Positions 1 to 17,576 of a stretch of 64,000 nt of DNA are shown here, piece by piece. The DNA is from Parcubacteria group bacterium Greene0714_7. Its GTDB lineage: Bacteria; Patescibacteriota; Minisyncoccia; Phycocordibacterales; Phycocordibacteraceae. Positions within the stretch are counted from its first letter, which is position 1. Each line of letters starts with the position of its first letter. A model generated the notes under the pieces. The model ran no database searches. It was not told where the DNA came from and saw only the letters and a program-made list of their open reading frames with translations. Both the position numbers and the translations under genes were made by a program. The DNA lies in assembly GCA_007378985.1 (NCBI GenBank), contig VMHB01000002.1, forward strand, positions 27,320 to 91,319. Direction: 5' to 3'.

Positions 1-230
1 GGGAAGGTATTAACCCTCTCTATATTCCCCACCTTGATTTATTAAAAATTTGCACTAAAATACCCGTATGTCACAAGAAAAAGCACCTGACTTTCTCGAT
101 AAGGCTCTGAATTGGCTAGATAGGAATGTTGGCAGACATGTACGTCCTGTCGGACCACGCAGTCCTCGCGAATAAAAACAAAAAACCACCCTTGAGAATG
201 CCTCAAGGGTGGTTTTTTGTTTTTACTACA

Positions 231-1769
231 TCAAAGGTCTGTTCCTGAATACGAAAGATTCAAGCTCTTATTACAAAGTGGAAAATCAGGAACGATGTTT
301 CCTGGAGCAAGTTCACCAAAAAGTGGCCAGTTGCAGAATGACGGGTCACGGATGACCAATCGGTCAATGCGACCTTTTGCATCAAGACGCACAAAATCTA
401 AAACTGCACCACGCCAACTCTCAGCAAATCCGTATGCATCTCCCGTGCCATGAGGAACAGGAAGCGTTGCCTTGCCCTCAGGAAGTGTGGTAATGGCAAG
501 GCGAATTAATCTGAATGATTCGGTGAGTTCACGCACACGCACATTGAAACGCGCAAGAACATCGCCTACTGTTTCTACCATCACTGACACATCCATATCG
601 GCATACGCTCCGTATGGCATATCACGACGAAGATCCATATCGATACCCGAGGCACGTGCGCCAATACCTTGTGCACCATATGCAAGCGCTGCTTCTTTGC
701 CTAAAATTCCTGTTGTTTCAAAACGCTCCTTAAGACCATCTTTTGCGTAAGCGATTTTCAACACTTCCCCTATATCCTTTTCTATACGCTTAATTGTTTC
801 TAGAATTTTCACTTCATCGTCTGCCGTTACATCGTGCGCACCGCCCAGTGTAATTGCACCACGAAGGAACCGATGTCCGACGAGATCAGCATTGAGGCGA
901 CGCATTTCTTCCACCATACGAAAACCTTGAGCAGCCATAAATGTAAACCCAGTACCCATACCGCCCATATTCCCTATGTCAAAGATGTGGGCACACACAC
1001 GTTCAAGCTCGCTCCATATAACTCGGAGGTACTCCGCACGCAGAGGCACCTTCACACCAGAGACTTTTTCTACAGCCTGCACAAACGCAAGCGTGTGTCC
1101 TACTACCATGTCCCCTGACACACGCTCAACAAAGGGTAGTGCTTCCTCGGGAGTTTTCCCTTCAACAAGTTTGAGTACACCTTTATGTTTGAAAAAGAGT
1201 TTGCCTTCAAGGGTAATAATGCGCTCCCCACGTACATTGAAACGGAAATGCCCCGGCTCAATGATGCCTGCGTGAATTGGCCCTACTGGAATCTCATACA
1301 CCCCTTCCCCTTCCACTTGGTGCATAGGATATGGAACGTGTGCATGCGCAAGTTTTGTATTCCACTCAAAGTCTTTTCGCATAGGGTACGTGCCTTCAGG
1401 AACATTTTCATGATGCATCAAGCGCCGTGGATCAGGATGTCCCACTGCTTCAATGCCAAACTGATCCATAATCTGCCGTTCATACCAGTTCGCTGCCATG
1501 ATTGAACGAGTCAAAGATGGATACTGTGGTTTTTCAGGCGAGAGGTAGCTCTCAAGCGTAAGTAGTTCTGTACCAACAGCAAAAACTGCACGTATAGAAA
1601 AAATATTGCTTTTTTTACGCTCATCGAGTGCGTACATTAAAACCAAAGGCGACCCTGCCTCTACTATGTGCTCTGCCGTAAGTGCAAAGTCCGACACTGG
1701 AACCTGCACCGTGCCAGAATCGCTCACATCTTCTAGACCTATTTCTTTTAAAAGTGTTTGGATATTCAT
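231..1769 (-). CDS. Fused NuoC-NuoD-like large subunit of group-4-hydrogenase-related (Ehr-type) complex; NiFe-ligand cysteines absent
   Basis: N-terminal NuoC signature (ANWYERQIMDQFGIEAVGHPDPRRL) fused to a NuoD/HycE-like body (GPIHAGIIEPGHFRF). The canonical RxCGxC motif reads RVSGDMVVGH and the C-terminal DPCxxC reads DPSFCN, so the Ni-Fe ligands are lost. Confidence 0.8.
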   Translation of the reverse strand: MNIQTLLKEIGLEDVSDSGTVQVPVSDFALTAEHIVEAGSPLVLMYALDERKKSNIFSIRAVFAVGTELLTLESYLSPEKPQYPSLTRSIMAANWYERQIMDQFGIEAVGHPDPRRLMHHENVPEGTYPMRKDFEWNTKLAHAHVPYPMHQVEGEGVYEIPVGPIHAGIIEPGHFRFNVRGERIITLEGKLFFKHKGVLKLVEGKTPEEALPFVERVSGDMVVGHTLAFVQAVEKVSGVKVPLRAEYLRVIWSELERVCAHIFDIGNMGGMGTGFTFMAAQGFRMVEEMRRLNADLVGHRFLRGAITLGGAHDVTADDEVKILETIKRIEKDIGEVLKIAYAKDGLKERFETTGILGKEAALAYGAQGIGARASGIDMDLRRDMPYGAYADMDVSVMVETVGDVLARFNVRVRELTESFRLIRLAITTLPEGKATLPVPHGTGDAYGFAESWRGAVLDFVRLDAKGRIDRLVIRDPSFCNWPLFGELAPGNIVPDFPLCNKSLNLSYSGTDL

Positions 1770-1776
1770 ATATATA

Positions 1777-3249
1777 TTATGAAATGGCCGTGATTATACG
1801 TTCAAGAATTGGCGATGCCATAGGTGTCATAAGAAACACACTAAATGCAACCAACAAAATAAGGTGAAAAGCTATAGCGGTGTGCGACCATCCCCATTTT
1901 TCACCCACTTCCACTTCACTCTTTGGAGGAACAAGCGCGGGCGAAAAAAGAAACGGAATGATGAGGCGTATGAATCCTGCAAAAATGATAGCGAGCGCAA
2001 GAAGTACTATTGTTGCAAATATCGGATGTAGTACAACGCTTTGCGATATCAAAAGTAGTTCACTCCCAAAAAGTGGCGATGGTGGAATAGCGAGGAGCAT
2101 CAAAATCAAGGTAAGAAACAGTGCTCCCGTGTACGGCAGTGTACGCATAACCTGCCCTATCCGATCAAACTTCGTACTCTTGAAACGGAGCAATATGTTG
2201 CCTGCGCTAAAAAACAGCGCAGACTTTAGGAGCGCATGTCCAACAATATGAATAACTGACGCAACAGCACCAACAGTCCCGAGTCCAGCAGAAAATACAA
2301 TGAGTCCCATATGCTCAATCGAAGAGTACGCAAGGAGACGTTTATAGTCTGCTTGGATCAAAATGAACGCTGCAGGAATAATGCATGAGAGCACTCCAAA
2401 CACTAAGAACAATTCACTCGTCCATTCGCTTGAAGCAAGTGAACCGTCTACTAACACCCGAAAGCGCAATATTCCAAACAACGCAGCATTGAGAAGAATA
2501 CCTGAGAGCATGCCTGAAATCGGCGAAGGGGCTCTGCTGTGCGCATCGGGTAACCATGCATGCATTGGCACCAAACCTACCTTCGTTCCATACCCAATAA
2601 GAATGAACACGAACGCTATTTGCATCAGGTGTGGCGGAAGCGAGGGAGCAACAGTAAGCAAATTCGTCCAACTGATTGCTGAAAGTCCGTGCAAAAGACC
2701 AGAAGATGACGCTGCATAATACGTGAGGAATAATCCAATGAGTCCGAGCGAAATTCCCGTTGAACAGAGAATAAGATATTTCCATGCTGCTTCAAGTGAG
2801 CCTTTGTGAGCATAGAACGCAACGAGGAGCGTTGTAGTCAGTGTTGTTGCTTCAAGCGCAATCCACATAAAACCAAGATTGTTTGAAACAATAGTGAGAA
2901 GCATTGAGCACACAAAGAGACCAACAAAAAAGAAGTAACGACGCACTGCGGGCAGTGTTATCTCCCCTGTTCTCACTTCTTCTCCTAAGTAGTGAATACT
3001 CGTTATGGTTGCTGTCCATTGAATGAACCCAATGAGAAGCACCATGAGTGCTGCGAATGTATCAAGATACCAGTACCCATTTTCAAATGACGATGCCCCA
3101 AAAAATAGCGGGATGGCAGTATACAGACTTAACACAAACACACCAGAACTTGCCAAAAATGCTGCGCCAAAAATAAACCGCAAACCACGCATAAAAAATG
3201 GCACGGTGGCGAGAACTAAACATGAGACAAGCAGTAGTGAGATAGCCAT
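1777..3249 (-). CDS. NuoM/NuoN/HyfF-like antiporter-type membrane subunit
   Basis: Polytopic membrane protein with the conserved WLPDAHSRAPSPISGMLSGILLNAALFG motif of the complex I/Mrp antiporter family. Confidence 0.8.
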   Translation of the reverse strand: MAISLLLVSCLVLATVPFFMRGLRFIFGAAFLASSGVFVLSLYTAIPLFFGASSFENGYWYLDTFAALMVLLIGFIQWTATITSIHYLGEEVRTGEITLPAVRRYFFFVGLFVCSMLLTIVSNNLGFMWIALEATTLTTTLLVAFYAHKGSLEAAWKYLILCSTGISLGLIGLFLTYYAASSSGLLHGLSAISWTNLLTVAPSLPPHLMQIAFVFILIGYGTKVGLVPMHAWLPDAHSRAPSPISGMLSGILLNAALFGILRFRVLVDGSLASSEWTSELFLVFGVLSCIIPAAFILIQADYKRLLAYSSIEHMGLIVFSAGLGTVGAVASVIHIVGHALLKSALFFSAGNILLRFKSTKFDRIGQVMRTLPYTGALFLTLILMLLAIPPSPLFGSELLLISQSVVLHPIFATIVLLALAIIFAGFIRLIIPFLFSPALVPPKSEVEVGEKWGWSHTAIAFHLILLVAFSVFLMTPMASPILERIITAIS

Positions 3250-3254
3250 AAAAA

Positions 3255-3902
3255 TTAATCAGTTAAGGTTCGCAAATCATCAGTCGCCACCGACGCATTC
3301 TCATCTTGTGCGCGGTGCGTGAACACAGTGATAAGAATAAAAAATGCCAAGAGGTCAAAAAACGATCCGATTTCAAAAAGAAATGGCATGCCGTGCGTGA
3401 GTGCGAGTCCGAATGTGAAGATGCCATTCTCCATAACAAAGAATCCAATTCCCTCCCCAAACATATCTTTTCGCGAAACCAACATAAGAAGGCCGACGAG
3501 CACAATGCCAAATGATGCAGCGAGCACAAAGTAATCAGCACCAACGGGCAATAACCCACGTGCTCCAACTAAAGCAACAATAGCCAGACACGCCGCAACA
3601 AAAGAAAGCGTTGCGGGACGTGCATATGATTGTAGGCGTTCAGATGCCCCACTCACACGTGCCGCACGAAGCAAAAACGAAGGAATAAACCAAACTTTAA
3701 TGAGAACAATAAGGCCTGCAACAATAAAAAGTTGAAACTCCCCCGTTACAAATGCTGCGGCAATAGCGAGGAGCGCAAGAAGCGCTGACTGTACTCGAAA
3801 TGCAGTTACCAAAGACCCCAAGCGCATGCGACTACTCATAAGAAACGCTAGGAAAAACATTCCTCCAGCAAACACTGTCATGGCAATTGCGATTGGTGTC
3901 AT
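3255..3902 (-). CDS. HyfE-like small membrane subunit of hydrogenase-4/Ehr-type complex
   Basis: A 215-aa all-helical membrane protein of the same size and position as hyfE within the operon. Confidence 0.6.
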   Translation of the reverse strand: MTPIAIAMTVFAGGMFFLAFLMSSRMRLGSLVTAFRVQSALLALLAIAAAFVTGEFQLFIVAGLIVLIKVWFIPSFLLRAARVSGASERLQSYARPATLSFVAACLAIVALVGARGLLPVGADYFVLAASFGIVLVGLLMLVSRKDMFGEGIGFFVMENGIFTFGLALTHGMPFLFEIGSFFDLLAFFILITVFTHRAQDENASVATDDLRTLTD

Positions 3903-3903
3903 A

Positions 3904-4884
3904 TTAGTGATAGAGGACGATTAACTCAACAGCAAGTCCGAGGAGCGCAATAAAGAATGCAAGCATCATATACTCCTGCATCCGATAAAAACGCATCTTC
4001 ACAATCACTGATTCTATAAAAGCAATTGCAAAAGCCCCGAGTGCAAGTTTTCCGAAAAATGCAATCAACGCAATCCCAAGCCCAAAGAACGTAACCGGTG
4101 GAGCGCTAATCCCAAATGGAATGAGAATGCCCATACACACTGCCAAGAGCGCAGTTAACTTTATTGCTGACGCATACTCGAGCATTGCAAGATATGTTCC
4201 TGAATACTCTAAGATCATAGCTTCGTGCACCATGGTGAGCTCGAGATGTGTCGCAGGATTATCTACTGGGTAGCGTGCATTTTCGGCAAGCAACACAAAT
4301 AAAAGTCCAATGAGTGTGACGATAGCAGGAGGAACAGCGACCAACCACGGCAGTGATGTGAAGTGTCCAACAATGCCCCCCATGCCCCATGCGCCCGTAG
4401 CAAGCGCAAGAGTTGCAAGTGATACATAGAGCGCTGGCTCAACGAGAGTGGCGAGCGTCATCTCACGGCTCGAACCCATGTTGCCAAACGTACTTCCCGT
4501 ATCCATGCCTCCAAGCACCAAAAATACTGAACCGAGCGCCACTACTGCGCCAAAAAGAAAAATATTATCGAGCGAGCTTGGCACAATTCCAAAGAAGAGC
4601 GAAGGTACAACAAGAGCAAGGAAGAATGCGCTTCCTAAGACCACAAATGGCACCATGCGAAATACCCACGAACTATGCTTTGTAATTGTCATCTCTTTTC
4701 GGAGGAGTGAAAGCATTGAGACGTAGGGCAAAAATATCGACGGTCCTTGGCGATTTTGAAAACGAGCTTTCAATGTGCGAACCATTCCCACGACTAATGG
4801 TGCAGAAAGAAGTACAACGAGAGCTTGAAATGTAATAAGGAGGTATGTCATAGAGTTGTAGCGAGAGTGAACACCAATGCGCAA
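3904..4884 (-). CDS. NuoH/HycD-like membrane subunit
   Basis: A 326-aa polytopic membrane protein sitting between the NuoL-like and HyfE-like genes, in NuoH/formate hydrogenlyase subunit 4 family order. Confidence 0.7.
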   Translation of the reverse strand: MRIGVHSRYNSMTYLLITFQALVVLLSAPLVVGMVRTLKARFQNRQGPSIFLPYVSMLSLLRKEMTITKHSSWVFRMVPFVVLGSAFFLALVVPSLFFGIVPSSLDNIFLFGAVVALGSVFLVLGGMDTGSTFGNMGSSREMTLATLVEPALYVSLATLALATGAWGMGGIVGHFTSLPWLVAVPPAIVTLIGLLFVLLAENARYPVDNPATHLELTMVHEAMILEYSGTYLAMLEYASAIKLTALLAVCMGILIPFGISAPPVTFFGLGIALIAFFGKLALGAFAIAFIESVIVKMRFYRMQEYMMLAFFIALLGLAVELIVLYH

Positions 4885-6854
4885 ATAACTAGGAGGAGGT
4901 ACAACTGAATGACGCCATTCTGGAGTCTTTTAACCGCACGGGAAACAGCAAAGACCGCAATGCCAATCGGGCGATAGAGCCAGTATTCAAAAAATGACTT
5001 AATACTCCACACAAGACGCCGACGCACAATCCACGGATTACTCATTGAAATAGGCTCAATAATTAGTTCCTTCTCCGACATGAGAATTGATTTGAAGAAA
5101 AATCTAATCGGCGCAGAAAAACCAGTTGCAGTATATTGCATTCGAGGAGTTATAGGTTGGCCGCAATCCCATGTATCCGTGATACGGGCAGGGTTTCTGT
5201 TAGAAAAAGATCGGCGACACACTGTGAGAAGCACTCCAATAAAAATAACACTTAGAAGTACCCACCATGCATTCATAGAAACTCCACCTAGAATTGCAAC
5301 GTCTCCAAAAAGTGTCACACCTTCCATGAAAGTGTTTGGCGCACTAAGAATTGGAAACAAAAATAATCCCGCAATGATTGAGAGGAGTACGGAAAATAGT
5401 GATGGAAGCCAAAGCAGTATCGGCATTGGGGACACCTGTTCTGCATGAGTCGTGCGTGCTCGTCCAAGAAAGATTGCACTAAACATACGCACGTACGCAA
5501 AGAGCGCGAGCCCGCCGACCAACGCAAGAAGAGCGAGTATCAATGCAAAACTTCCTCCAAAAAAAGCAGAAACCGTCATACCACTTGCGAGTGTCTGAAA
5601 ATATGTCCACTCACCAAAAAAGGTACCGAATGGGGGCAACGCAGCAGCTGCAAGAGAAAGCGCAAGAAATATTCCTGCAAAAATTGGCCAGCGCTGTGCA
5701 AGACCCCCTAGCTCGTCGAGATTTCGTGTATGTGTTTTTGATGCCACAGCACCAACTGCCATGAAAAGCCCTGTCTTGAAAATAAAATGGTTCGCAGTAT
5801 GAAGAATTATGAAAAGAGCAATGGATGGTGCAATTGCGGAAACCGCACTATCTTGAGATCCGTGCACAAGGAGGTATATTCCAACAGCAGAAAAGATGAG
5901 CCCCATATTTTCTATACTGCTCCACGCAAGGACGCGCTTTGCGTCATTCTCAACTGCAGCGCGGAGCGCACCAAAAAATGCTGAGAGAAGGCCAATACTA
6001 ATAACGAGGAATGCTGAAAAAGACGGAACAAACGGGAATAGTGCTACTCCTTGAATGAAACCAAAGAGTGCCACTTTAAGCATGACACCAGAGAGAAGCG
6101 CGGAGCTTCCACTTGGTGCTTGTGGGTGTGCATAGGGCAACCACTGATGAAGTGGCACTAAACCTGCTTTCGAACCAAACCCCGCTAAGAGAAGTACAAA
6201 TGCAATAGAGATAGCGAGTGGTGTGGCACCAAGAGCAGAGAGTGCAACATCATGCCACGACGCAAAAAGATTACCCCCTGCAAGAAGAAGAAGCCCTGCT
6301 GCAATACAAGCAAACCCAATGTGAGTCATCACAAAGTAGAGCCATCCTGCACGGAGTGATTCATCACTCCTATCTGCGATAACCAAGAAATATGCGGAGA
6401 CTGACATAATTTCCCAAGCCATCAGGAAAGTAAAAAGCGATGGGGAAAGGATCGTTGCTTGCATCCCTACAATAAAAAATGCCGAGGCAACATTGAGCGT
6501 TGGCAACACGTACACATCCTTATATGGTGGCAAGCTCTGAATCGCATAGAGCGAGGTTAGAAGGACGCCTCCGTACACCAACATAAGGAAAAACACTTGC
6601 ATCGAGTTAAGTGCAATGTTCACCAACCCAAAGAACGTACCATTGAAAGACGCACTATTTCCTATTCCTAAAAGAGCAAAAAAATAACTGCCAGCAATCA
6701 GGCCAGCAAAACCCGACAAAATAAACATCGATTGCACCAGCGTGTTGTTCCAAGAAAAACGGCGAGTCGCAAGAGAAAGAACTACACCTACAAGTGGGAG
6801 CACGAATGCTATAGCAAAAAGACAGTCGATAGTGAAGGAGGACATATGGTGCAT
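4848..6854 (-). CDS. NuoL/HyfB-like antiporter-type membrane subunit
   Basis: A 668-aa polytopic protein carrying the WLPYAHPQAPSGSSALLSGVMLKVALFG motif. Confidence 0.8.
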   Translation of the reverse strand: MHHMSSFTIDCLFAIAFVLPLVGVVLSLATRRFSWNNTLVQSMFILSGFAGLIAGSYFFALLGIGNSASFNGTFFGLVNIALNSMQVFFLMLVYGGVLLTSLYAIQSLPPYKDVYVLPTLNVASAFFIVGMQATILSPSLFTFLMAWEIMSVSAYFLVIADRSDESLRAGWLYFVMTHIGFACIAAGLLLLAGGNLFASWHDVALSALGATPLAISIAFVLLLAGFGSKAGLVPLHQWLPYAHPQAPSGSSALLSGVMLKVALFGFIQGVALFPFVPSFSAFLVISIGLLSAFFGALRAAVENDAKRVLAWSSIENMGLIFSAVGIYLLVHGSQDSAVSAIAPSIALFIILHTANHFIFKTGLFMAVGAVASKTHTRNLDELGGLAQRWPIFAGIFLALSLAAAALPPFGTFFGEWTYFQTLASGMTVSAFFGGSFALILALLALVGGLALFAYVRMFSAIFLGRARTTHAEQVSPMPILLWLPSLFSVLLSIIAGLFLFPILSAPNTFMEGVTLFGDVAILGGVSMNAWWVLLSVIFIGVLLTVCRRSFSNRNPARITDTWDCGQPITPRMQYTATGFSAPIRFFFKSILMSEKELIIEPISMSNPWIVRRRLVWSIKSFFEYWLYRPIGIAVFAVSRAVKRLQNGVIQLYLLLVICALVFTLATTL

Positions 6855-7372
6855 TACTTACGGGTAGCGGTAACTATACTCAAGAGCCCCCTTAAGACAT
6901 CCTCTGGTGTTGGAGGATCGCCAGGAATTCGAGCATCGACAGGAATTACATTTTCTACTGCCCCAACTACCGCATAGGAATCCTTCCAAATTCCGCCCGT
7001 GCATGCTCCATCACCGAGAGCAACAACAATTTTTGGCCCTGGTGTCATTTCGTAGGCGGTCTTCAATGCATGCTCCATGTTGCGAGTAACAGGGCCTGAA
7101 ACAGTGAGTACATCAGCATGACGGGGAGATGCCACAAATGAGATTCCAAAACGCTCAATATCGTAAAACGCATTCCCAAGCGCAGTTAGTTCATACTCTT
7201 CGCCGTTTGTGGAACCCGCATCAACATGCCGTATGCGTAGTGTTCGGCCTCCATATAAAGTATGAATAGCGTGCTTCAGATTCTCACCGATCTCCTCAAT
7301 GTAAGTTGGAATTTGAGGACATTTTTCAGTTCTCTTCCCGGTGGTAATTATTTTAGAAAGAAGACGCAACAT
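6854..7372 (-). CDS. NuoB-like small subunit lacking Fe-S cluster ligands
   Basis: YEMTPGPKIVVALGDGACTGG and IPGDPPTPE align to the NuoB motifs YDQMPEPK / GSCAxxGG / PGCPPRPE. The CC pair and the CPP cysteine are replaced (ST and D). Confidence 0.75.
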   Translation of the reverse strand: MLRLLSKIITTGKRTEKCPQIPTYIEEIGENLKHAIHTLYGGRTLRIRHVDAGSTNGEEYELTALGNAFYDIERFGISFVASPRHADVLTVSGPVTRNMEHALKTAYEMTPGPKIVVALGDGACTGGIWKDSYAVVGAVENVIPVDARIPGDPPTPEDVLRGLLSIVTATRK

Positions 7373-7390
7373 ACTGTGGAAATGTGGCTT

Positions 7391-7419
7391 ACTATATTCC
7401 TCTTCACTTTAGATGTCCA
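7391..7419 (-). promoter_or_regulatory. Sigma70-like promoter for the Ehr-type operon (TGGACA-17-TATAGT on minus strand)
   Basis: On the minus strand TGGACA and TATAGT are separated by 17 nt, about 20 nt upstream of the ATG at 7372. Confidence 0.45.
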
Positions 7420-7497
7420 GAAAGCAACAGAGTAAATAGTGGACCCATCTACTCCACTGTTTCTTAAAATAAACCACCACACTGTTGTAGAAATTCC

Positions 7498-7526
7498 TTG
7501 CTTCTTAGAATAAAGAGGCGTATAAC
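7498..7526 (+). promoter_or_regulatory. Sigma70-like promoter (TTGCTT-17-TATAAC) for the His-rich ORF
   Basis: The hexamers are 17 nt apart and lie about 30 nt upstream of the ATG at 7562. Confidence 0.4.
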
Positions 7527-7561
7527 TTCACAAAATAATCTAACAAAAAATATTTACTGAT

Positions 7562-8326
7562 ATGGCTGGTTACGAAGGGGGTCCACGAGACCCTATGAAT
7601 TTTGAAGAGGCAGAAGAATATGTTCGTCGAAATGGCAAGGTACTGCCTATCCCTCCGCTCCTCGGGCCAGATCACATACATTGTATTGATAGTCGGCGAA
7701 CCAAAGAAGGGATAGGATACCCAGGAGGTCTGCTGGGACTTACCACGACCCTTTTTTCAGGAGTGCATGAGGACGCGCACGCGCACGTTGGCGGATTCAA
7801 GGGATTTGCTCAATTTCTTGAAGGATTATTTGGTGGAATGAGTGCTCACACCGACGATGAACACGAGCATGATCCTTCTGGGTGTAGAGGGTGTGGACAC
7901 ATGCAATCTCTTATGACTAATCACAGTGCATACGGATTCGGTTCAGAACACGCTGAGGAAGTCCACTCGTATGCAAAAGGCTTGAAAACTCGGTGGAGAG
8001 AAGGTACTCCTGGTTTCAATATTTTTCAATACGGAGGAAAAGCAAACCCGCGTGCAGTTATGCATGTAGACGACCCACGAGATGGGCACTATATATCTCT
8101 CCCCCCTAACGATGGAACAAATCAAGTATTTGTTCACAATAGAGGTGCCAACCATGGCATTTTAGGCGATGCAGTGCATTTTATTTTAGGCGGACTTGGT
8201 GACGTATTTAAAAGCCACCCAAAAGATATTTATGATAAGCATATTGCGTTAACAATAGATAAACTGGCTTCAGATTTACCACATTTCACAGTAGGACATG
8301 ACGGGGGAAAAATTACAGTAAACTAA
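7562..8326 (+). CDS. Hypothetical His-rich protein (possible metal-binding)
   Basis: 254-aa ORF with His clusters (HEDAHAHVGG, HTDDEHEHDPSGCRGCGH) and no recognised family. It is divergent from the Ehr-type operon. Confidence 0.5.
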   Translation: MAGYEGGPRDPMNFEEAEEYVRRNGKVLPIPPLLGPDHIHCIDSRRTKEGIGYPGGLLGLTTTLFSGVHEDAHAHVGGFKGFAQFLEGLFGGMSAHTDDEHEHDPSGCRGCGHMQSLMTNHSAYGFGSEHAEEVHSYAKGLKTRWREGTPGFNIFQYGGKANPRAVMHVDDPRDGHYISLPPNDGTNQVFVHNRGANHGILGDAVHFILGGLGDVFKSHPKDIYDKHIALTIDKLASDLPHFTVGHDGGKITVN

Positions 8327-8380
8327 AAGTAAGGTCTCATAAAAAACCAAAAAAATATAGGAGAAAGCACCTATAAACAC

Positions 8381-8409
8381 TTGTAAAGGCACCATTATCG
8401 AGCTATCAT
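8381..8409 (+). promoter_or_regulatory. Sigma70-like promoter TTGTAA-17-TATCAT for infC
   Basis: Good hexamers with a 17-nt spacer, and the -10 ends 15 nt before the TTG start. Confidence 0.5.
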
Positions 8410-8424
8410 TCTTGATACAAAACC

Positions 8425-8958
8425 TTGGCTACTCTAAAAACACGTATCAATGCGCAAATACGCGCACCCGAACTTCGGGTCATAGGTCCTAATGGCGAAA
8501 ACGTCGGCGTTATTACGCTCGCTGAAGCTATGGCGCAAGCAAAAGCTGCGGAGCTCGACTTAATAGAGGTTTCGCCAAACGCGACCCCGCCAGTTGCGAA
8601 AATAATGGATTATGGTAAATTTCAATACGAGCAACAGAAAAAAGACCGAGAAATAAGGGCTAAATCGCACATTACAGAGACAAAAGCAGTCCAAGTTGAG
8701 GTAGGTACTGGAGAAAACGATCTTCTCCGAAAGGCTCGCCAAGCAGCTGGATGGCTCAAAGAAGGACATCGGGTACGAGTGGAACTCTTCCTTAAGGGAC
8801 GCTACAAGTACATGGATCCGGCATTTCTCAAGGAAAGATTGAAGCGTTTCGTGCTTTTGGTTCCCGAGGATTACCGTATCGCTGAGGACATACAGAAAGG
8901 TCCAAAAGGATTCAACATGATCCTAGAAAAGGCCGGAAAACAGAAGCCTGCAAAATAA
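8425..8958 (+). CDS. infC: Translation initiation factor IF-3
   Basis: Clear IF-3 sequence (RINAQIRAPELRVIGPNGENVGVITLAEAMAQAKAAELDLIEVSPNATPPVAKIMDYGKFQYE). It begins at a TTG start codon, as is common for infC. Confidence 0.9.
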   Translation: MATLKTRINAQIRAPELRVIGPNGENVGVITLAEAMAQAKAAELDLIEVSPNATPPVAKIMDYGKFQYEQQKKDREIRAKSHITETKAVQVEVGTGENDLLRKARQAAGWLKEGHRVRVELFLKGRYKYMDPAFLKERLKRFVLLVPEDYRIAEDIQKGPKGFNMILEKAGKQKPAK

Positions 8959-8962
8959 TAAA

Positions 8963-9154
8963 ATGAAAACGAACAAATCATACACAAAGCGTCTCCGCGT
9001 AACTCGCAACGGTAAGATTGTTGCGCGTAAGGGCGGACAAGACCATTTCAATTCTCGTGATAGCCGAAAGACTCGCACCGTGAAAGCTCGTGCGAAAGCT
9101 GTAGAAATGAATCCGAGGGTGCGCGCTCGATTCCTTCCAGGAAACGGCAAATAG
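8963..9154 (+). CDS. rpmI: 50S ribosomal protein L35
   Basis: 63-aa basic protein (MKTNKSYTKRLRVTRNGKIVARKGGQDHF) immediately after infC. Confidence 0.9.
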   Translation: MKTNKSYTKRLRVTRNGKIVARKGGQDHFNSRDSRKTRTVKARAKAVEMNPRVRARFLPGNGK

Positions 9155-9165
9155 ATTTTCTTTAG

Positions 9166-9197
9166 CTAAACCCTATCCACTAAACACTAACCCCTAA
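9166..9197 (+). repeat. CCCTAA(A)-like intergenic repeat copy (gctaaaccctatccactaaacactaacccctaa), 6 nt upstream of the rplT ATG
   Basis: Member of a recurrent motif family seen at more than 15 sites in this window. Confidence 0.7.
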
Positions 9198-9203
9198 TTT
9201 CAT

Positions 9204-9551
9204 ATGTCTAGAGTAAAAGGAGGACCAAAGGCGATGAAGCGCCGTCGCAATATATTGAAAGCCGCAAAAGGCTATCGTTTTGGACGCTCAACAAAGACAA
9301 AGCAGGCACTCGAAGCTTTGAAACACGCTGGTAAATACGCATTCCGCGATCGTAGAGCTAAGAAAAGAACTATGCGAGGACTCGCAATTGTACGTATCAA
9401 CGCAGCACTTCGCGAAAGAGGTTTCAAAAACTACAGCACCTTCATGGGCGCAGTAAAGAAAGCAAACATCGAGCTCGACCGCAAAGTACTTTCAGAAATT
9501 GCATCGGAATACCCAGAAGCATTTGATAGACTCTTGAAAATAGCTGCCTAA
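9204..9551 (+). CDS. rplT: 50S ribosomal protein L20
   Basis: MSRVKGGPKAMKRRRNILKAAKGYRFGRS...; canonical infC-rpmI-rplT order. Confidence 0.95.
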   Translation: MSRVKGGPKAMKRRRNILKAAKGYRFGRSTKTKQALEALKHAGKYAFRDRRAKKRTMRGLAIVRINAALRERGFKNYSTFMGAVKKANIELDRKVLSEIASEYPEAFDRLLKIAA

Positions 9552-9695
9552 GGAGTTGTGAATCCATCCCCGCGAGAAAAATACAAGTTAAAAATATGCG
9601 CTGGGTGTACTCGACCAATCCTTGGGTATGACAATTTAACTTGTACTGAATTACGCGACGGTCGTTTTCTTCATTCAGGTTGCAAACTATAAACT

Positions 9696-9722
9696 AATCC
9701 CGTTTTCGCGGGATTTTTTATA
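9696..9722. terminator. Bidirectional rho-independent terminator between convergent rplT and the MBL gene
   Basis: Hairpin aatcccg-ttttcg-cgggatt followed by TTTTTAT. Confidence 0.6.
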
Positions 9723-11139
9723 CAATAGGAATTTCGTATGTCTCCCCTTCTCTTGGTACATCAACGGGAATATTGAGGAACCCTGCGATGCGTTGCGCTA
9801 GAAACGTTGCTGACTCTGTTTCCCCCAATATTACAAAAACATGCTTAGGGTTAACATTTTCAGCAAAGGTCATGAGATCATCTCTGTCAGCGTGTGCAGA
9901 AAATCCGTCCGTTGATAGTATTGTCGCGCGCGCCTTAACCTCAACACCATCTATATTTACTGTTCGTGCGCCGTCTTTAAGTCTCCGACCTAAACTCCCA
10001 GGCACTTGATAGCCCACCAGGAGGAGCACCGTTGATTTCTGCGGTAGATACTTCGCTTCGTGTCTTCTAATACGCCCACCATGGCTCATACCAGCTCCTG
10101 CGATGATTATTTTAGGGCCGGGGTGCCTGTCTATCGCATCCGACTCGTCTGGGTGGACACTCACTTTTAAACTTGGGAATGAAAATGGATCGTCTCCGCC
10201 GAGAAGTCGAGTGCGTATATCAGCACGAAGAAATTCTGGATGCTTTCTGTACACATCAGTTACTTTGGCAGCAAGAGGTGAATCCATAAATACTGCTACT
10301 TCGGGAATAACACCGTTAGTAATTGCCTTATCTAAAGAAGCAAGAATTATTTGTGTGCGTTCAAGTGAAAATGCAGGTATAAGAAGCGTACCTTGGCTCC
10401 CAATAATAACTTTAACAGCCGACAAGAGCGCCTGCTCACTCTCTTCAAGTGAGCTGTGTGTTTTATTGCCGTATACACTTTCTGTTATAAGGTATTCTAC
10501 ATCGGCAGGCACTTCCCTATCGGGCACAAGAGCGGCAGGCACACGACCTAAATCTCCTGTAAACAAAATTTTCTTTCCAAAAATATCAAGGAGGATGGTG
10601 GCAGATCCTAAAATGTGTCCAGCATTGTGAAATGTTGCAGTAACTCCAGGCGCGAACTCTAATGTTTTGCCATATGTCGCCTCATCAATATATTCAACTG
10701 CCCGTATAGCATCTTCAATAGCGTACGGTGGTTCATCGTTGCATCGCTTTGCTTCGAGGGCAATTATCTTTACAGAGTCCTCAAGCATTATTGGAATAAG
10801 TGCTTTGGTGGGAGCCGTTGCAAACGCACGCCCTGTAAAACCGTTCTTTACAAGTTTAGGGAATAACCCAATGTGATCAGCGTGTGCGTGAGTAAAAAGA
10901 ACTATATCAATCGTTGCGGGATCGTATGAAAATATTTCCCTATTAGCCGATTCACAAAATCGCTCACCCTGCGCTAGTCCACAATCAATAAGTATGCGTG
11001 TAGTAACCTCTCCATTTTTTGCTTCTACAAGGAAATTTGAACCCGTAACACGTCTCGCACCTCGTGCAAACAAAATAGAAATCGATTTCATTGAATCATC
11101 ATACCTTAGACCAGAGAGCGCAACATCGGGAAAATTCAA
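9718..11139 (-). CDS. MBL-fold beta-CASP family ribonuclease (RNase J/CPSF-like)
   Basis: FTHAHADHIG metallo-beta-lactamase motif plus C-terminal beta-CASP-like region; 473 aa. Confidence 0.75.
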   Translation of the reverse strand: MNFPDVALSGLRYDDSMKSISILFARGARRVTGSNFLVEAKNGEVTTRILIDCGLAQGERFCESANREIFSYDPATIDIVLFTHAHADHIGLFPKLVKNGFTGRAFATAPTKALIPIMLEDSVKIIALEAKRCNDEPPYAIEDAIRAVEYIDEATYGKTLEFAPGVTATFHNAGHILGSATILLDIFGKKILFTGDLGRVPAALVPDREVPADVEYLITESVYGNKTHSSLEESEQALLSAVKVIIGSQGTLLIPAFSLERTQIILASLDKAITNGVIPEVAVFMDSPLAAKVTDVYRKHPEFLRADIRTRLLGGDDPFSFPSLKVSVHPDESDAIDRHPGPKIIIAGAGMSHGGRIRRHEAKYLPQKSTVLLLVGYQVPGSLGRRLKDGARTVNIDGVEVKARATILSTDGFSAHADRDDLMTFAENVNPKHVFVILGETESATFLAQRIAGFLNIPVDVPREGETYEIPIV

Positions 11140-11149
11140 AAGTAAAAAT

Positions 11150-11169
11150 TGTATGATATATCATACAGA
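11150..11169. promoter_or_regulatory. Palindromic operator-like box TGTATGATATATCATACAG
   Basis: 18-20 nt palindrome 22 nt upstream of the MBL RNase start. A near-identical copy sits at the ComEC start (47938..47957). Confidence 0.5.
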
Positions 11170-11193
11170 CATCTAAGGTAGCCATAGCGCGGA

Positions 11194-11250
11194 AGAATTA
11201 CCACACCCTCACATATACGATATATCGTATATGTGAGGGTGTGGTAATTC
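11194..11250. repeat. 57-bp perfect palindrome (GAATTACCACACCCTCACATATACGATATATCGTATATGTGAGGGTGTGGTAATTC)
   Basis: Arms of 28 bp pair without a single mismatch. The centre ACGATATATCGT shares the GATATATC core with the operator-like box. Confidence 0.9.
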
Positions 11251-11263
11251 TCTTTGTTCATAT

Positions 11264-11297
11264 AAAAATCCGCCTTTGATATATTCAAGGGCGGATT
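11264..11297 (-). terminator. Rho-independent terminator downstream of ndk (minus strand)
   Basis: Stem aatccgcc...ggcggatt followed on the minus strand by a TTTTATAT run. Confidence 0.55.
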
Positions 11298-11310
11298 TAG
11301 AAGGATCAGT

Positions 11311-11444
11311 GACGGAGTATTAACCTTAGAGCCGAAGCTCCAGGTGGGTGCTCGCAGCATCTCGCGCATCGGATTCTCCGGAGAGATTCACCAGCGCGGA
11401 GCGATATAAAGCTCCCTAAAGTTTTTCAACGAGGTTAATACTCC
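11311..11444. ncRNA. Candidate structured RNA element bounded by 15-bp inverted repeat (gacggagtattaacc / ggttaatactccgtc)
   Basis: Perfect 15-bp arms enclose about 105 nt rich in internal palindromes (ctccggag, gcgcgcatc...). No convincing ORF and no family recognised. Confidence 0.3.
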
Positions 11445-11551
11445 GTCACTAACCCCTCCCTCCATTCTAGCAGGTTAGCCACTAGTGGTTAGGGTTTAGG
11501 GGAAAACAAAAGTGCATTCTCCCTAATGGCTAAAAACTAAACCCTATTGGC

Positions 11552-12187
11552 TTATTCAAGGATTCCATCCAAATTCACATCGTAGAGAATTTGCTCCTGG
11601 ACGATACGGTATTTCAATATTTCTTCGGGCTTAAACCACACAGCAATTTCACGTGATGCTTCTTCTGGGGACTCTGAACAGTGGACGAGGTTTCTAACGG
11701 CACGACTCTGTACCGATGAATGGTCGTAAGAATCCACAGTGTAGTCACCACGAATAGTTCCAACATCTGATGTCTTTGGCTCTGTTGCACCCACAAGTTT
11801 CTTCACAACGGCTACTGATTCATTCCCTTCAACAACCATCATGAGTACAGGACCTGCAGTCATGAATTTCACTATTGAATCTATTATTTCTTTACCGTAC
11901 CCAAGCGCATCCTTCTCTATTGGCAGATTGTGCGTGGTGCGGTCATTTAATATCCGAGTTCCTTTTTCAAGAAACCACTTCTCATCTTTGTTGTAGTGAC
12001 GCACAAGTTGGTCTTCCGTGGCAAGACCAAATTTGAATGCAACAAATTTCAATCCTGTTCGCTCTATGCGCTTCATTATCTCTCCGATAAGAGAACGCTG
12101 TACTGCGTCAGGCTTCAATATAATAAGCGTACGCTCATTTTCAAATTGTGCATTGGTGTTCATTGAAGCGACTATAGCATTCTGCAA
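11552..12187 (-). CDS. ndk: Nucleoside diphosphate kinase (extended form)
   Basis: Conserved NDK core (RTLIILKPDAVQRSLIGEIMKRIERTGLKFVAFKF...) and the active-site region (NLVHCSESPEEASREIAVWF). Confidence 0.8.
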   Translation of the reverse strand: MQNAIVASMNTNAQFENERTLIILKPDAVQRSLIGEIMKRIERTGLKFVAFKFGLATEDQLVRHYNKDEKWFLEKGTRILNDRTTHNLPIEKDALGYGKEIIDSIVKFMTAGPVLMMVVEGNESVAVVKKLVGATEPKTSDVGTIRGDYTVDSYDHSSVQSRAVRNLVHCSESPEEASREIAVWFKPEEILKYRIVQEQILYDVNLDGILE

Positions 12188-12202
12188 GGCGAAACGCCAT
12201 GC

Positions 12203-12222
12203 GAAGGGGTTAGGGTTTAGAG
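12203..12222 (-). repeat. CCCTAA-like repeat copy (minus-strand ctctaaaccctaaccccttc) about 15 nt upstream of ndk start
   Basis: Same motif family as the rplT copy, oriented with the downstream gene. Confidence 0.7.
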
Positions 12223-12244
12223 AAGAACGAATTCAAAGCCCCTT

Positions 12245-12271
12245 GATCCCTGCGGATCCGATGAAGCGTCG
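12245..12271 (+). repeat. Two-hairpin UNCG element copy a (GATCC-CTGC-GGATC + CGATG-AAG-CGTCG)
   Basis: It shares structure and sequence with the copies at 54170..54196 and 43817..43843, with compensatory base changes between copies. Confidence 0.65.
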
Positions 12272-12300
12272 CCTAAACACTAAACCCTGTCCACTAACCC

Positions 12301-15186: not shown

Positions 15187-15254
15187 ACCTAGTAGTATAA
15201 CGCGTCACTCGCGCAAAATTTTTCTTGAGTAGAAACGAGCGTGTAATATTTCTA

Positions 15255-15806
15255 TTACGGAACATCAGAACCTAAACTCCGCATCATCTCAAATGCACCA
15301 CGAGCAATTGATGCACCATCTGCCCCAACAGAAAGTGGTGCTTTTTTTAAAACCAAATGACCTTGCTCTTCAAACACTCCAACCTCAGTGCCTGCAGTCT
15401 CAAACCAACACGCCAACCCGGCTTTTTCACCCTCCAAAAGTGGCCATTCTGGAACACCTATTTCTGCACACGAACCTTCATATGTTCCAACAGAGGATTC
15501 TTTACCATTAAGAGAGAGCGATACATTAGTGAGTGGAGCACCGGCACGGTTTTTACTGCCTGAGTCACTCACAATCCAGTTGTACACAGAAACCTCGCAT
15601 GGAGTAAATTCACATGCTGGACCTACTCGTCCAACAGTACTCCCATCTGGACAGATTTTCGTTTCTTCAGTACACGCGCTCACATGTGGCACAACAGTAG
15701 TAGAAATACGGACAAAAAAGAACCAAGCACCGATGACCCCAACACATATAACTACACCAAAGAAAACCCACTGAAACTTTGCCGACATCATACTAGTGTA
15801 ACTCAA
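15255..15806 (-). CDS. Hypothetical membrane-anchored/secreted Cys-containing protein
   Basis: N-terminal TM helix (VFFGVVICVGVIGAWFFFV) followed by a Cys-containing ectodomain. No family recognised. Confidence 0.5.
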   Translation of the reverse strand: MSYTSMMSAKFQWVFFGVVICVGVIGAWFFFVRISTTVVPHVSACTEETKICPDGSTVGRVGPACEFTPCEVSVYNWIVSDSGSKNRAGAPLTNVSLSLNGKESSVGTYEGSCAEIGVPEWPLLEGEKAGLACWFETAGTEVGVFEEQGHLVLKKAPLSVGADGASIARGAFEMMRSLGSDVP

Positions 15807-15817
15807 ATAGAGAATAC

Positions 15818-15901
15818 AAAAAAAGGCGCCACTAAAACATAAGATTTACTTATGTTTGGGCGAACAATTACTTTGTAATTGTTTTAGCCGTGGCGCCTTT
15901 T
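15818..15901. terminator. Long hairpin (aaaaggcgccac...gtggcgcctttt) bidirectional terminator downstream of map operon
   Basis: Imperfect stem of about 18 bp flanked by A- and T-runs. Confidence 0.5.
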
Positions 15902-16196: not shown

Positions 16197-16209
16197 ACAA
16201 TCTCTTACT

Positions 16210-16974: not shown

Positions 16975-16983
16975 CCTGTCAAA

Positions 16984-17565: not shown

Positions 17566-17576
17566 GAATACCTATA

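Follow-up and report, generated by a model that had tools for sequence, protein, structure and literature searches.

A patescibacterial Ehr operon that retains none of the known redox cofactor sites of its superfamily may encode a redox-independent ion translocator

Ehr complexes belong to the superfamily that includes group 4 hydrogenases and complex I. They are built from six subunit types – NuoL-, NuoH-, HyfE/NuoK-, NuoN-, NuoD- and NuoB-like – and in their large subunit the family signature ER[VI]SG[DT] / NLSY[SA]G occupies the sites of the NiFe cysteines. A clade specific to Patescibacteria (CPR) that lacks the NiFe (metal-binding) cysteines has already been described and occurs patchily across CPR (Jaffe et al., 2020, PMC7304191). 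Complex I (NDH-1) and the P. furiosus complexes MBH and MBS (Mbx) share the core module of NuoB, NuoD, NuoH and antiporter-like subunits. Unlike the complex described here, they keep the NuoB cluster, a NuoI-type subunit with two clusters and a catalytic site (the quinone His/Tyr, NiFe or a polysulfide site).

We analyzed a 64-kb stretch of DNA (the window) in which six closely packed, co-directional ORFs, ehrS-A-B-C-D-L, run from 7372 to 231 and form one operon (Table 1). Pfam and NCBIfam assignments are consistent with the identities of all six subunits and, together with the ORF coordinates, bear out the gene order proposed in a first-pass annotation (NuoB, NuoL, NuoH, HyfE, NuoM/N, NuoC-NuoD fusion). 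None of the ORFs is interrupted, and each stop lies close enough to the next start to allow translational coupling: the start of ehrA overlaps the stop of ehrS (TAATG) and the start of ehrB overlaps the stop of ehrA (ATGA). The true start of ehrB is probably Met12 at 4851, not the ORF start at 4884, giving a protein of 315 aa, the length at which its relatives are called. With small subunit first, the operon differs from many non-CPR Ehr loci, which have the small subunit last, and resembles the B-first Ehr operons, which share the absence of a NuoI-like subunit.

The promoter-like site is the top-scoring sigma-70-like match in positions 1-9000 (10/12 positions) – a consensus match only, in a region where such sites are no more numerous than the shuffled expectation. 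The terminator begins 10 nt past the ehrL stop. Because the promoter-like site and the strong terminator bound the operon, no NuoI-like gene follows it, and none lies within it. The operon also ends with the large subunit in the relatives L001, L003, L005, L007, L009, L012 and L091, in agreement with the earlier claim that the NuoI-like ferredoxin subunit is missing. Compared by gene content, relatives carry the same six genes and nothing beyond; in L091, a 94%-identical locus, the next downstream gene is a convergent smpB.

Table 1. Features of the ehr operon and its flanks (window coordinates).
Feature	Position	Strand	Description	Support or context
ehrL	231..1769	-	fused NuoC-NuoD (HycE/HyfG-like) large subunit, 512 aa	Pfam PF00329 + PF00346
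ehrD	1777..3249	-	NuoN/HyfF-like antiporter-like subunit, 490 aa	Pfam PF00361, 1.6e-45
ehrC	3255..3902	-	HyfE-like subunit, 215 aa, C-terminal half NuoK-like	NCBIfam 'hydrogenase 4 membrane subunit', 1.1e-12
ehrB	3904..4884	-	NuoH/HyfC-like subunit	Pfam PF00146, 6.8e-33
ehrA	4848..6854	-	NuoL/HyfB-like antiporter-like subunit, 668 aa	Pfam PF00361, 4.8e-44
ehrS	6854..7372	-	NuoB/HyfI-like small subunit, 172 aa	Pfam PF01058, 1.2e-26
Promoter-like site	7391..7419	-	TGGACA-17-TATAGT	19 nt upstream of the ehrS ATG at 7372
Intrinsic terminator	177..221	-	20-bp stem, 8 G-C pairs, then T-run	follows the last stop codon
Carbonic-anhydrase-like gene	7562..8326	+	zeta-class (CDCA-type) carbonic-anhydrase-like protein, 254 aa	leads the infC-rpmI-rplT gene string; outside the Ehr system

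We compared the ligand columns of the two peripheral subunits with E. coli HyfG, HyfI, NuoB and NuoCD and with PDB chains, and found no NiFe or [4Fe-4S] cysteine ligand at any of them. In EhrL, whose best PDB match is HycE (7z0s_E, 1.9e-60), all four NiFe cysteines are replaced: HyfG C243/C246/C517/C520 align to S218/M221/S506/G509. The first pair falls in the same column as HycE C243/C246, so RVSGDM stands in for RxCGxC, as the first-pass annotation had it. That annotation was also right that the second pair is lost, but placed it at DPSFCN, which aligns to HycE RAATYANWP; the true column is the extreme C-terminal NLSYSG. The complex I quinone ligands are likewise absent, with NuoCD H224/Y273 aligning to I170/G219. 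NiFe ligand loss holds across 119 large-subunit homologues, and the Met in the second NiFe column ('SMSG') is a hallmark that sets the CPR clade apart from other Ehr. Among these homologues 139 positions are near-invariant, and the former active-site region is very strongly conserved (ER[VI]SGDM...H, CNKSLNLSYSGTDL and GPIHAGIIEPGHFRF); the Glu and His of the hydrogenase-type beta1-beta2 loop and the E-R of the L1 motif are invariant.

The small subunit, which best matches MbhJ and HycG among PDB entries, has also lost its cluster ligands. Alignment to E. coli HyfI C44/C47/C111/C141 and NuoB C64/C129/C158 sets the [4Fe-4S] ligand columns of EhrS at T55, E58, G122 and D152. The replacements are shared by CPR homologues (n=121), which have T, N or S in the first column, E in 121/121, G in 120/121 and D in 120/121; 66 positions are near-invariant, and 44 of the 121 proteins have no Cys at all. 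The HyfI/NuoB alignment thus confirms the loss of the first Cys pair and the change of PGCPP to PGDPP that had been read from the sequence. The apparent retention of GDGACTGG, which implied a surviving ligand, does not hold: its Cys124 lies two residues off the ligand column and is a Cys in only 68/121 homologues. By comparison, non-CPR ligand-less loci with a scored small subunit keep all four cysteines in 53/54 cases, the exception being L086. Loss of the small-subunit Fe-S cluster on top of the NiFe cysteines seems to be unreported so far.

The operon encodes a member of the CPR-specific Ehr clade, and in this complex none of the superfamily's known redox cofactor sites remains: NiFe, the quinone-ligand pair, the NuoB-like [4Fe-4S] cluster and the NuoI-like subunit are all missing. 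In the tree, the CPR clade receives 100% bootstrap support and lies outside the CCCC hydrogenase clade. The ligand columns, the gene content of relatives and this placement bear out the initial description of a six-subunit Ehr-type complex with lost ligands in a reduced genome, and they agree with Jaffe et al. (2020). Purifying selection is strong on all six genes (dN/dS 0.04-0.13). Conservation is highest in the two peripheral subunits: identity to locus L005 is 59% for the NuoB-like and 55% for the NuoCD-like subunit, against 38% for the NuoL-like and 35% for the HyfE-like one.

The membrane arm keeps all canonical Lys, Glu and His residues of antiporter-like subunits, the NuoK-like carboxylates and the NuoH-like coupling loop. 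EhrA, for which the best NCBIfam model is 'hydrogenase 4 subunit B' (6.1e-121, under the model's cut-off), has E148, K229, K260, H356 and E415 aligned to E. coli NuoM E144/K234/K265/H348/E407, and these are kept in six CPR relatives. EhrD matches 'hydrogenase 4 subunit F' (2.4e-111) and shares E133, K223, N254 (as HyfF N263), H313, H338 and E397 with its CPR relatives. EhrC gives a full-length alignment with E. coli HyfE, and HyfE in turn aligns to NuoK (E 4e-6); two of its Glu residues are conserved, one in 'MENG', which corresponds to NuoK E36, and one in 'FEIG'. EhrB keeps the Glu equivalent to NuoH E157, and CPR relatives show no variation in its TM5-6 loop, ARYPVDNPATHLELTMVHEAMILEYSG.

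The top-scoring characterized relatives of every subunit (HyfB, C, E, F, G, I and HycE) come from E. coli hydrogenase-4 (Hyf) and formate hydrogenlyase (Hyc), group 4a enzymes that share the NuoC-NuoD fusion and the hydrogenase-type beta1-beta2 loop. Unlike them, the ehr complex lacks NiFe ligands, Fe-S clusters, the HyfA/HyfH ferredoxin-type subunits, HyfD and formate dehydrogenase, and no hyp or hyc maturation genes were seen in the window. The closest model for how it may work is instead the Mrp multisubunit cation/proton antiporter, which has no redox cofactor and likewise combines two PF00361 subunits bearing the full Glu/Lys/His set with a NuoK-like subunit. The complex is nevertheless not in the Mrp family: it has NuoH-, NuoB- and NuoCD-like subunits missing in Mrp, and no recognizable MrpB, E, F or G.

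Because every known metal site is lost, redox-free ion movement is probable. Judging from sequence, we give about an even chance to the Ehr complex being a redox-independent, Mrp-like ion translocator gated by a cofactor-free cap. Such a complex would no longer convert redox energy; most likely it would exchange cations for protons (Na+ or K+/H+) in the manner of Mrp, or act as a gated proton conduit. Its NuoB/NuoCD cap would be kept to lend structure to the NuoH-like E-channel, to gate it or to sense a ligand there. In CPR cells that live by fermentation, the complex would interconvert or regulate the ion gradient made or used by the F-type ATPase. This role fits the atp genes that lie directly beside the ehr operon in several CPR lineages: in L005/L006, L013 and L017 they sit immediately upstream on the same strand, and in L021 they are close by. 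The window itself lacks this arrangement, however, which is limited to about 4 of the ~11 distinct CPR-type loci. The first-pass annotation had called the complex an energy-conservation component. That claim was overstated, since without a redox cofactor a secondary ion translocator is more likely than a primary energy converter. Two points sit uneasily with the translocator reading: the active-site region is more conserved than a passive cap would appear to require and could harbor an unrecognized ligand or chemistry, and Mrp antiporters work without the NuoB/D/H module, yet six subunits are kept here.

A rival reading is that primary energy conversion persists in this complex; in its favor are the high conservation of the peripheral subunits and the invariant beta1-beta2 loop Glu/His and L1-motif E-R. 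Redox or non-redox chemistry in the remodelled, highly conserved large-subunit pocket (S218, D220, M221, H225, E171, H174, C499 and S506) would then power ion pumping in the manner of complex I, MBH or MBS, and the pocket would bind some substrate, another metal or a partner protein that dissociates and is encoded elsewhere. The motif S-G-D/T ... NLSY[SA]G is common to Ehr of many phyla, suggesting a common conserved site, and partner enzymes such as formate dehydrogenase have already been proposed for Ehr in other phyla (PMC6349859). An electron-transfer path is absent here, however, as the small subunit is without Fe-S ligands and often Cys-free, and there is no NuoI-like subunit. Nor do the CPR loci show a conserved partner gene beside the operon, where neighbors differ in every lineage, and we found no ferredoxin-like ORF or other redox partner or gene within the 64-kb window, the scope of this search; a partner may be encoded elsewhere in the genome. 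CPR bacteria have generally been described as lacking quinones and electron-transport chains. We consider primary energy conversion by this complex fairly unlikely.

The gene divergent from the operon across a 189-bp intergenic region was first annotated as a 254-aa His-cluster protein that could be functionally linked to Ehr. The ORF and its orientation are right, but the two quoted His clusters are not conserved; the only conserved His residues are H96 and H113. The predicted protein is instead carbonic-anhydrase-like. Its CxDxR, PGG, HxD and GCG motifs align with those of CDCA1, the Cd/Zn zeta-class carbonic anhydrase of the diatom Thalassiosira weissflogii, whose metal is coordinated by two Cys and one His within the aligned motifs (PMC4413181). 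The corresponding Cys-His-Cys and Asp-Arg site is intact, although identity to CDCA1 is only 16-19%, the protein is bacterial (CPR) and it has one domain where CDCA1 has three repeats. Pfam PF18484 does not match it, and three relatives match weakly (best E 0.021).

In cyanobacterial NDH-1MS/CupA and in DabA-DabB, a carbonic-anhydrase-like protein is driven by complex I-type antiporter (PF00361-type) subunits. With that precedent, the intact site and the divergent arrangement, seen in the window, L007, L009 and L091, Ehr and this protein might form an energy-coupled (vectorial) CO2/bicarbonate system in this lineage. This reading is very improbable and largely refuted by gene context, as co-occurrence fails in both directions. 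Ehr locus L001/L011, although 83% identical, lacks the gene, as do all more distant CPR Ehr loci examined, including L003, L005 and L012; conversely, L010 and L094 have it immediately upstream of infC-rpmI-rplT with no Ehr. The gene lies on the infC strand, always first in that gene string, and its family is tiny: 54 matches among 1.8 billion representative proteins, against at least 120 clusters at 55% identity or more among the matches listed for the CPR Ehr large subunit. The neighbor is very probably unrelated to the Ehr complex, and the proposed functional link is not supported.

Finally, that the operon is a decaying, functionless relic of a hydrogenase, as the loss of every cofactor ligand and the patchy CPR distribution might suggest, is hardly credible and already refuted by conservation: the tightly packed ORFs are intact, dN/dS is low, the near-invariant positions of both peripheral subunits hold over ~120 homologues down to 55-64% identity, and the replacement residues themselves (E58, G122, D152, S506 and G509) are fixed.

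We identified a six-gene ehr operon whose subunit set (NuoL, NuoH, HyfE/NuoK, NuoN, NuoD, and NuoB homologues) is co-operonic in the window, with the same six subunits present in relatives (see table). No NCBIfam model reached its curated cut-off for any of the six proteins, and none is thus an ordinary Nuo or Hyf orthologue. Gene junctions consist of TAATG and ATGA overlaps and gaps of 1–7 nt – close packing that suggests translational coupling – and the ehrB start is most likely Met12 (4851), which gives a 315-aa protein as called in relatives. Because the top promoter-like match of the region lies 19 nt 5' of the first ehr ATG and a T-tailed hairpin follows the ehrL stop, the operon is complete within the window. 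At a 94%-identical locus (L091), the next gene downstream of the operon is a convergent smpB. We detected no NuoA-, NuoI-, or NuoJ-like gene in the operon. Consistent with the first-pass annotation, which had claimed that a NuoI-like subunit is missing, no such gene was found in the operon (which the terminator closes), in the window, or in relatives from the Patescibacteria (CPR), and a cysteine-motif scan of all window ORFs for ferredoxin/NuoI-like proteins returned only spurious short off-frame ORFs.

Coordinates of features in the window and at related loci (L-numbers) in other genomes
Locus	Feature	Coordinates	Strand	Length and matches
Window	ehr operon, six head-to-tail ORFs	7372 to 231	minus	
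Window	ehrS, NuoB-like	6854-7372	minus	172 aa; Pfam PF01058
Window	ehrA, NuoL/HyfB-like	4848-6854	minus	668 aa; Pfam PF00361
Window	ehrB, NuoH/HyfC-like (ORF)	3904-4884	minus	Pfam PF00146
Window	ehrC, HyfE-like	3255-3902	minus	215 aa; NCBIfam 'hydrogenase 4 membrane subunit' model only, no Pfam
Window	ehrD, NuoN/HyfF-like	1777-3249	minus	490 aa; Pfam PF00361
Window	ehrL, NuoC-NuoD fusion	231-1769	minus	512 aa; Pfam PF00329+PF00346
Window	T-tailed hairpin, 20-bp stem	221-177		
Window	Carbonic-anhydrase (CA)-like gene	7562-8326	plus	254 aa; relatives P0121-P0178
Window	Beta-CASP metallo-beta-lactamase (RNase J-like)	9718-11139	minus	473 aa
Window	DUF8128 family in relatives	12301-15186	minus	961 aa
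Window	Two adjacent very large proteins	27198-33080	minus	1004 aa + 941 aa; CARDB + PKD domains
Window	ComEC (competence); type IV pilus PilB-like ATPase + PilC-like platform	46545-47954, 55298-58352	minus	
L005	atp genes	1-3958		
L006	atp genes			
L013	atp genes	111-3752		
L017	atp genes	43-2097		
L021	atp genes, both flanks of ehr operon	2929-3252 and 16193-20426		
L013	Fused NuoH-like + HyfE-like ORF	6594-8192		
L038	Large- and small-subunit locus (Chloroflexota)	8723-12403		
L086	ehr-related locus (Dehalococcoidales)	2204-4301		
L057	Two tandem ehr operons (Nitrospirota)	889-13979		
L059	Two tandem ehr operons (Nitrospirota)	4772-19841		
L010	Tandem CA-like paralogues	1702-2799 and 2863-3630		365 aa and 255 aa
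L094	Protein preceding CA-like gene	96-1640		514 aa; no Pfam matches

Aligning the window EhrL to HycE (PDB 7z0s_E) and E. coli HyfG, we found that all four Cys of the NiFe motifs (L1 RxCGxC, L2 DPCxxC) are missing, with HyfG C243, C246, C517, and C520 corresponding to S218, M221, S506, and G509. Across 119 homologues with at least 55% identity, these columns hold S/T, mostly M, S (119/119), and G (119/119), and 139 EhrL positions are near-invariant. The complex I quinone ligands H224 and Y273 of E. coli NuoCD align to EhrL I170 and G219. The first-pass annotation had described this complex largely correctly, including RVSGDM as the replacement of RxCGxC, but made two motif errors. One was to take DPSFCN as the DPCxxC column: DPSFCN aligns to HycE RAATYANWP, and the true L2 is the C-terminal ...NLSYSGTDL.

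No exact-sequence record was found for the window EhrL, and comparisons rest on relatives. Ehr complexes are widespread: a scan with one genome per species recovered EhrL relatives in at least 599 genomes – ligand-less Ehr and true hydrogenases pooled – and we read ligand columns and gene order in 80 of these. True hydrogenases, with CCCC in the large subunit, form a clade in a neighbor-joining (NJ) tree (83% bootstrap). The Ehr pattern, S-[T/S/E/N]-S-G, marks a very large set from Rokubacteria, Nitrospirota, Actinobacteria, Methylococcales, Thaumarchaeota, Methanomassiliicoccales, and Firmicutes. S-M-S-G is the hallmark of one further clade (100% bootstrap), which holds the window together with its relatives from the CPR and lies outside the CCCC clade. 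All three groups are split at 99% bootstrap from E. coli HyfG and NuoCD, and the deeper nodes, which order the Ehr subclades and true hydrogenases, reach only 13–42%. Checked by alignment and NJ tree, EhrL neither carries the Cys ligands nor clusters within the NiFe hydrogenases; as the Ehr-type reading of the first pass had it, the protein sits among ligand-less Ehr, apart from both genuine group 4 hydrogenases and complex I. This placement agrees with a published analysis (PMC7304191).

The small subunit, EhrS, has lost its iron-sulfur ligands as well. The four cluster Cys of E. coli HyfI (C44, C47, C111, and C141; the last three equivalent to NuoB C64, C129, and C158, with the first not aligned to NuoB, which has a CC pair) correspond to T55, E58, G122, and D152. 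In 121 homologues the four columns hold T/N/S, E (121/121), G (120/121), and D (120/121), and 44 of the 121 are free of Cys altogether. Given the replaced ligand columns and these Cys-free homologues, an Fe-S cluster in EhrS is excluded. The second motif error concerned GDGACTGG, which had been read as a retained ligand motif. We rejected its Cys124 as a shifted cluster ligand, since it lies two residues off the ligand column and is a Cys in only 68 of 121 homologues. On these alignments, the peripheral arm retains none of the redox-cofactor sites known in the family. The proximal/N2-type [4Fe-4S] Cys set, absent from the window EhrS, is typical of the sampled Ehr outside the CPR: among ligand-less (Ehr-pattern) non-CPR loci with a scored small subunit, 53 of 54 keep all four Cys. 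The window EhrS, without these Cys, is therefore a variant rather than a typical Ehr.

The one exception among those 54 loci, L086, combines an 'SESG' large subunit with a D-T-D-N small subunit, and a Chloroflexota locus (L038) has four NiFe Cys in the large subunit yet E-C-E-D in the small-subunit cluster columns; an error of alignment or ORF calling may underlie either combination. Two Nitrospirota loci (L057 and L059) each carry two complete tandem Ehr operons, 'SSSG' then 'STSG', with Fe-S ligands kept in both small subunits. We also observed a second CPR-rich Ehr clade (100% bootstrap; L020, L021, L017, L022, L029, L031, L032, and L041, labelled Saccharibacteria, Daviesbacteria, and Falkowbacteria) with an 'SSSG' large subunit. 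Its small subunits have lost two or three cluster Cys (D-C-G-D or T-C-D-D, again with Cys to Asp in PGCPP), which suggests parallel or stepwise cluster loss.

Loss of cofactor ligands is accompanied by strong constraint. Pairwise dN/dS against two relatives is 0.04–0.13 for all six ehr genes, though these values are rough because dS is saturated (>1) in all comparisons. Identity to a Uhrbacteria locus (L005) is 59% for the NuoB-like subunit, 55% for NuoCD, 51% for NuoH, 47% for NuoN, 38% for NuoL, and 35% for HyfE – the most conserved subunits being the two cofactor-less peripheral ones.

The membrane arm retains the residues associated with ion translocation. Our antiporter-subunit alignment recovers the canonical E. 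coli positions (NuoM E144/K234/K265/E407, NuoL K399, NuoN K395). At the key positions, the HyfB-like EhrA has E148, K229, K260, H356, and E415, and the HyfF-like EhrD has E133, K223, N254 (as in HyfF), H313, H338, and E397; both sets are conserved in six CPR relatives. The NuoH-like EhrB retains the Glu equivalent to NuoH E157, and its TM5-6 loop is invariant across CPR relatives. The C-terminal half of the HyfE-like EhrC is NuoK-like, with membrane carboxylates retained. In one CPR relative (L013), the NuoH-like and HyfE-like subunits are fused in one ORF.

These features set the complex apart from characterized systems. Unlike group 4 [NiFe]-hydrogenases (Hyf/Hyc/Mbh/Ech), it lacks the L1/L2 Cys motifs of the NiFe centre and the Fe-S relay formed by the small-subunit cluster and a NuoI/HycF-type 2x[4Fe-4S] subunit; among the ten largest ORFs lying past 27 kb in the 64-kb window, a Pfam scan found no Hyp-like protein. 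Unlike complex I/NDH-1, which has NuoA, NuoI, NuoJ, and three antiporter-like subunits, it has only two PF00361 subunits and lacks both the quinone His/Tyr of NuoD and the N2 ligands. For its proposed mode of action, the closest parallel is with Mrp antiporters, with which it shares MrpA/MrpD-type subunits bearing the TM5 Glu, TM7 Lys, TM8 Lys, and TM12 Lys/Glu and an MrpC/NuoK-like subunit. However, the operon contains NuoB-, NuoCD-, and NuoH-like genes and no MrpB, E, F, G, or further small membrane genes. The complex may be Mrp-like in its working, yet is not a member of the Mrp family.

Genomic context identified no recurring redox partner beside the ehr operon across the CPR lineages compared, where neighbours vary by lineage. 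The recurring neighbours are F-type ATP synthase genes: atpA-G-D-C lies directly upstream and co-directional in a Uhrbacteria-type subclade (L005/L006 and L013) and in the second CPR Ehr clade (L017), and a Daviesbacteria locus (L021) has atp genes on both sides of the operon. The window itself contains no atp genes.

The 254-aa gene divergent from the operon had been described as His-rich and linked to Ehr. Its quoted His clusters are not conserved in the family alignment; conservation falls instead on C41-x-D43-x-R45, P54-G55, H96-x-D98, and G110-C111-G112-H113, with C41, D43, R45, H96, and C111 invariant or at least 90% conserved among 34 family members. Few homologues were found (5 by word search; 54 among 1.8 billion representative proteins), and the protein has no Pfam or NCBIfam family; a zinc-finger C2HC match (E 0.11) was dismissed as noise. 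An AlphaFold2 model built from 34 sequences (pLDDT 93.9, pTM 0.91) had as its sole significant Foldseek matches three domains of CDCA1, a diatom cadmium/zinc carbonic anhydrase of the zeta class, and the family profile aligns CxDxR, PGG, HxD, and GCG to the CDCA motifs (profile-vs-PDB E 0.067). The metal ligands of CDCA1 are two Cys and one His (PMC4413181), and the 254-aa protein matches this zeta-CA metal site, including the CxDxR Asp-Arg pair. The Pfam CDCA model (PF18484) does not match the window protein and matches 3 of 34 relatives weakly (best E 0.021). Together, the CDCA1 fold matches and aligned motifs point to a predicted homologue of zeta-class carbonic anhydrases, at best a distant one. 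In that case it would represent a zeta-CA-like enzyme of bacterial (CPR) origin that escapes the Pfam models.

Gene contexts did not support a link between this gene and Ehr. The CA-like gene lies immediately upstream of infC-rpmI-rplT in the window and at L007, L009, L091, L010, and L094, and the last two lack an ehr operon. Conversely, at an 83%-identical Ehr locus (L001/L011), infC adjoins ehrS directly and the CA gene is absent. A metagenome scan (alignment A1) recovered a single near-identical locus, L091, and the wider co-occurrence test comprises only five independent contexts. Cup- or DAB-like coupling of the CA to Ehr is attractive but contradicted by these contexts. Set against smpB-(CA)-CA-infC in L010, the window's order of smpB-[Ehr]-CA-infC suggests insertion or loss of the whole six-gene ehr cassette in one piece, in line with published evidence that Ehr is patchily distributed and prone to transfer in the CPR (PMC7304191). 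The tandem CA-like paralogues upstream of infC in L010 are 34% identical over 283 residues, and the protein preceding the CA-like gene in L094, with CIDGR and GHGCAAH motifs, may be another CA-like protein. Two unannotated genes flanking a Kaiserbacteria operon (L003; 252 aa and 196 aa) were considered as further homologues but show no similarity.

The CPR Ehr thus lacks its cofactor sites, has intact ion-pathway residues, and is under strong selection. As the best explanation, to which we give roughly even chances, we infer that the complex would translocate ions independently of redox chemistry on an Mrp-like principle, by cation/proton exchange or through a gated proton path, with the NuoB/NuoCD cap retained as a structural, gating, or sensing element. 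It would act jointly with the F-ATPase in fermentative CPR cells. The main rival, in which the strongly conserved, remodelled EhrL pocket binds an unidentified substrate or partner and still drives pumping, seems unlikely: it lacks a route for electrons, and no partner gene recurs beside the operon in the CPR lineages compared. The conservation data exclude the operon being a decaying relic.

We tentatively raise a broader possibility, less probable than the redox-independent translocator itself: CPR Ehr could be a natural complex I-type machine that holds none of the redox cofactors known for the family, and the peripheral arm may have taken on a new, non-redox role in driving or gating ion translocation. 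Such an arm may, for example, be a cap that senses protons, pH, cations, or metabolites and works via the intact beta1-beta2 loop, the NuoH TM5-6 loop, and the E-channel. E58, D121, and D152, all fixed carboxylates, may make up a new cation site in place of the lost [4Fe-4S] cluster. If true, CPR Ehr would be a minimal redox-free model of the complex I superfamily's long-range coupling and, with the F-ATPase, a candidate core bioenergetic device of many Patescibacteria.

Ehr (ehrABCDLS) is a named family first seen in Geobacter, and reviews still report its function as unknown. Jaffe et al. 2020 described a monophyletic CPR clade within Ehr, devoid of the metal-binding Cys, that 'likely cannot interact with H2' (PMC7304191), so the missing NiFe Cys are already published. 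The main text of that paper makes no mention of the small-subunit cluster, the antiporter subunits, or ATP synthase in the Ehr context, and we found no report of these three points elsewhere in the literature searched, within which complete cofactor loss appears to be a new observation. We add that the CPR clade as a whole has none of the known redox-cofactor ligand sets, that it keeps the residues for ion translocation, with the peripheral arm as its most constrained part, that atp adjacency recurs, and that the neighbouring gene is zeta-CA-like. The clade is a measure of how much stripping is tolerated – no NiFe, Fe-S, ferredoxin subunit, or quinone site – and is an argument that, in this branch of the complex I superfamily at least, the complex does useful work without redox chemistry. 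It provides a small cofactor-free construct for probing communication between peripheral and membrane arms and a candidate ion-handling device for the Patescibacteria, whose membrane energetics are poorly understood. It also corrects routine gene annotations such as 'NADH-quinone oxidoreductase subunit C' or 'hydrogenase'.

The closest homologues (up to 93–100% identical) belong to Patescibacteria/CPR assemblies that carry the labels Kaiserbacteria, Uhrbacteria, Pacebacteria, Parcubacteria, or Minisyncoccota, including a complete 859-kb Kaiserbacteria genome, in keeping with the earlier description of a reduced genome. No tRNA genes and no Rfam families at gathering thresholds were found in the 64-kb window. 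Leader RNA elements are common at infC-rpmI-rplT, EF-G, and EF-Tu genes in other bacteria, and no Rfam match was obtained despite the presence of all of these genes here. The other window ORFs, Pfam-scanned or identified by synteny, encode housekeeping functions and typical CPR equipment. ComEC and type IV pili are the usual CPR kit for DNA uptake and attachment. The adjacent CARDB/PKD proteins are probably cell-surface proteins, and large surface proteins are often seen in episymbiotic CPR bacteria. Relatives of the 473-aa beta-CASP protein also match the Pfam 'Anti-Pycsar_Apyc1' model.
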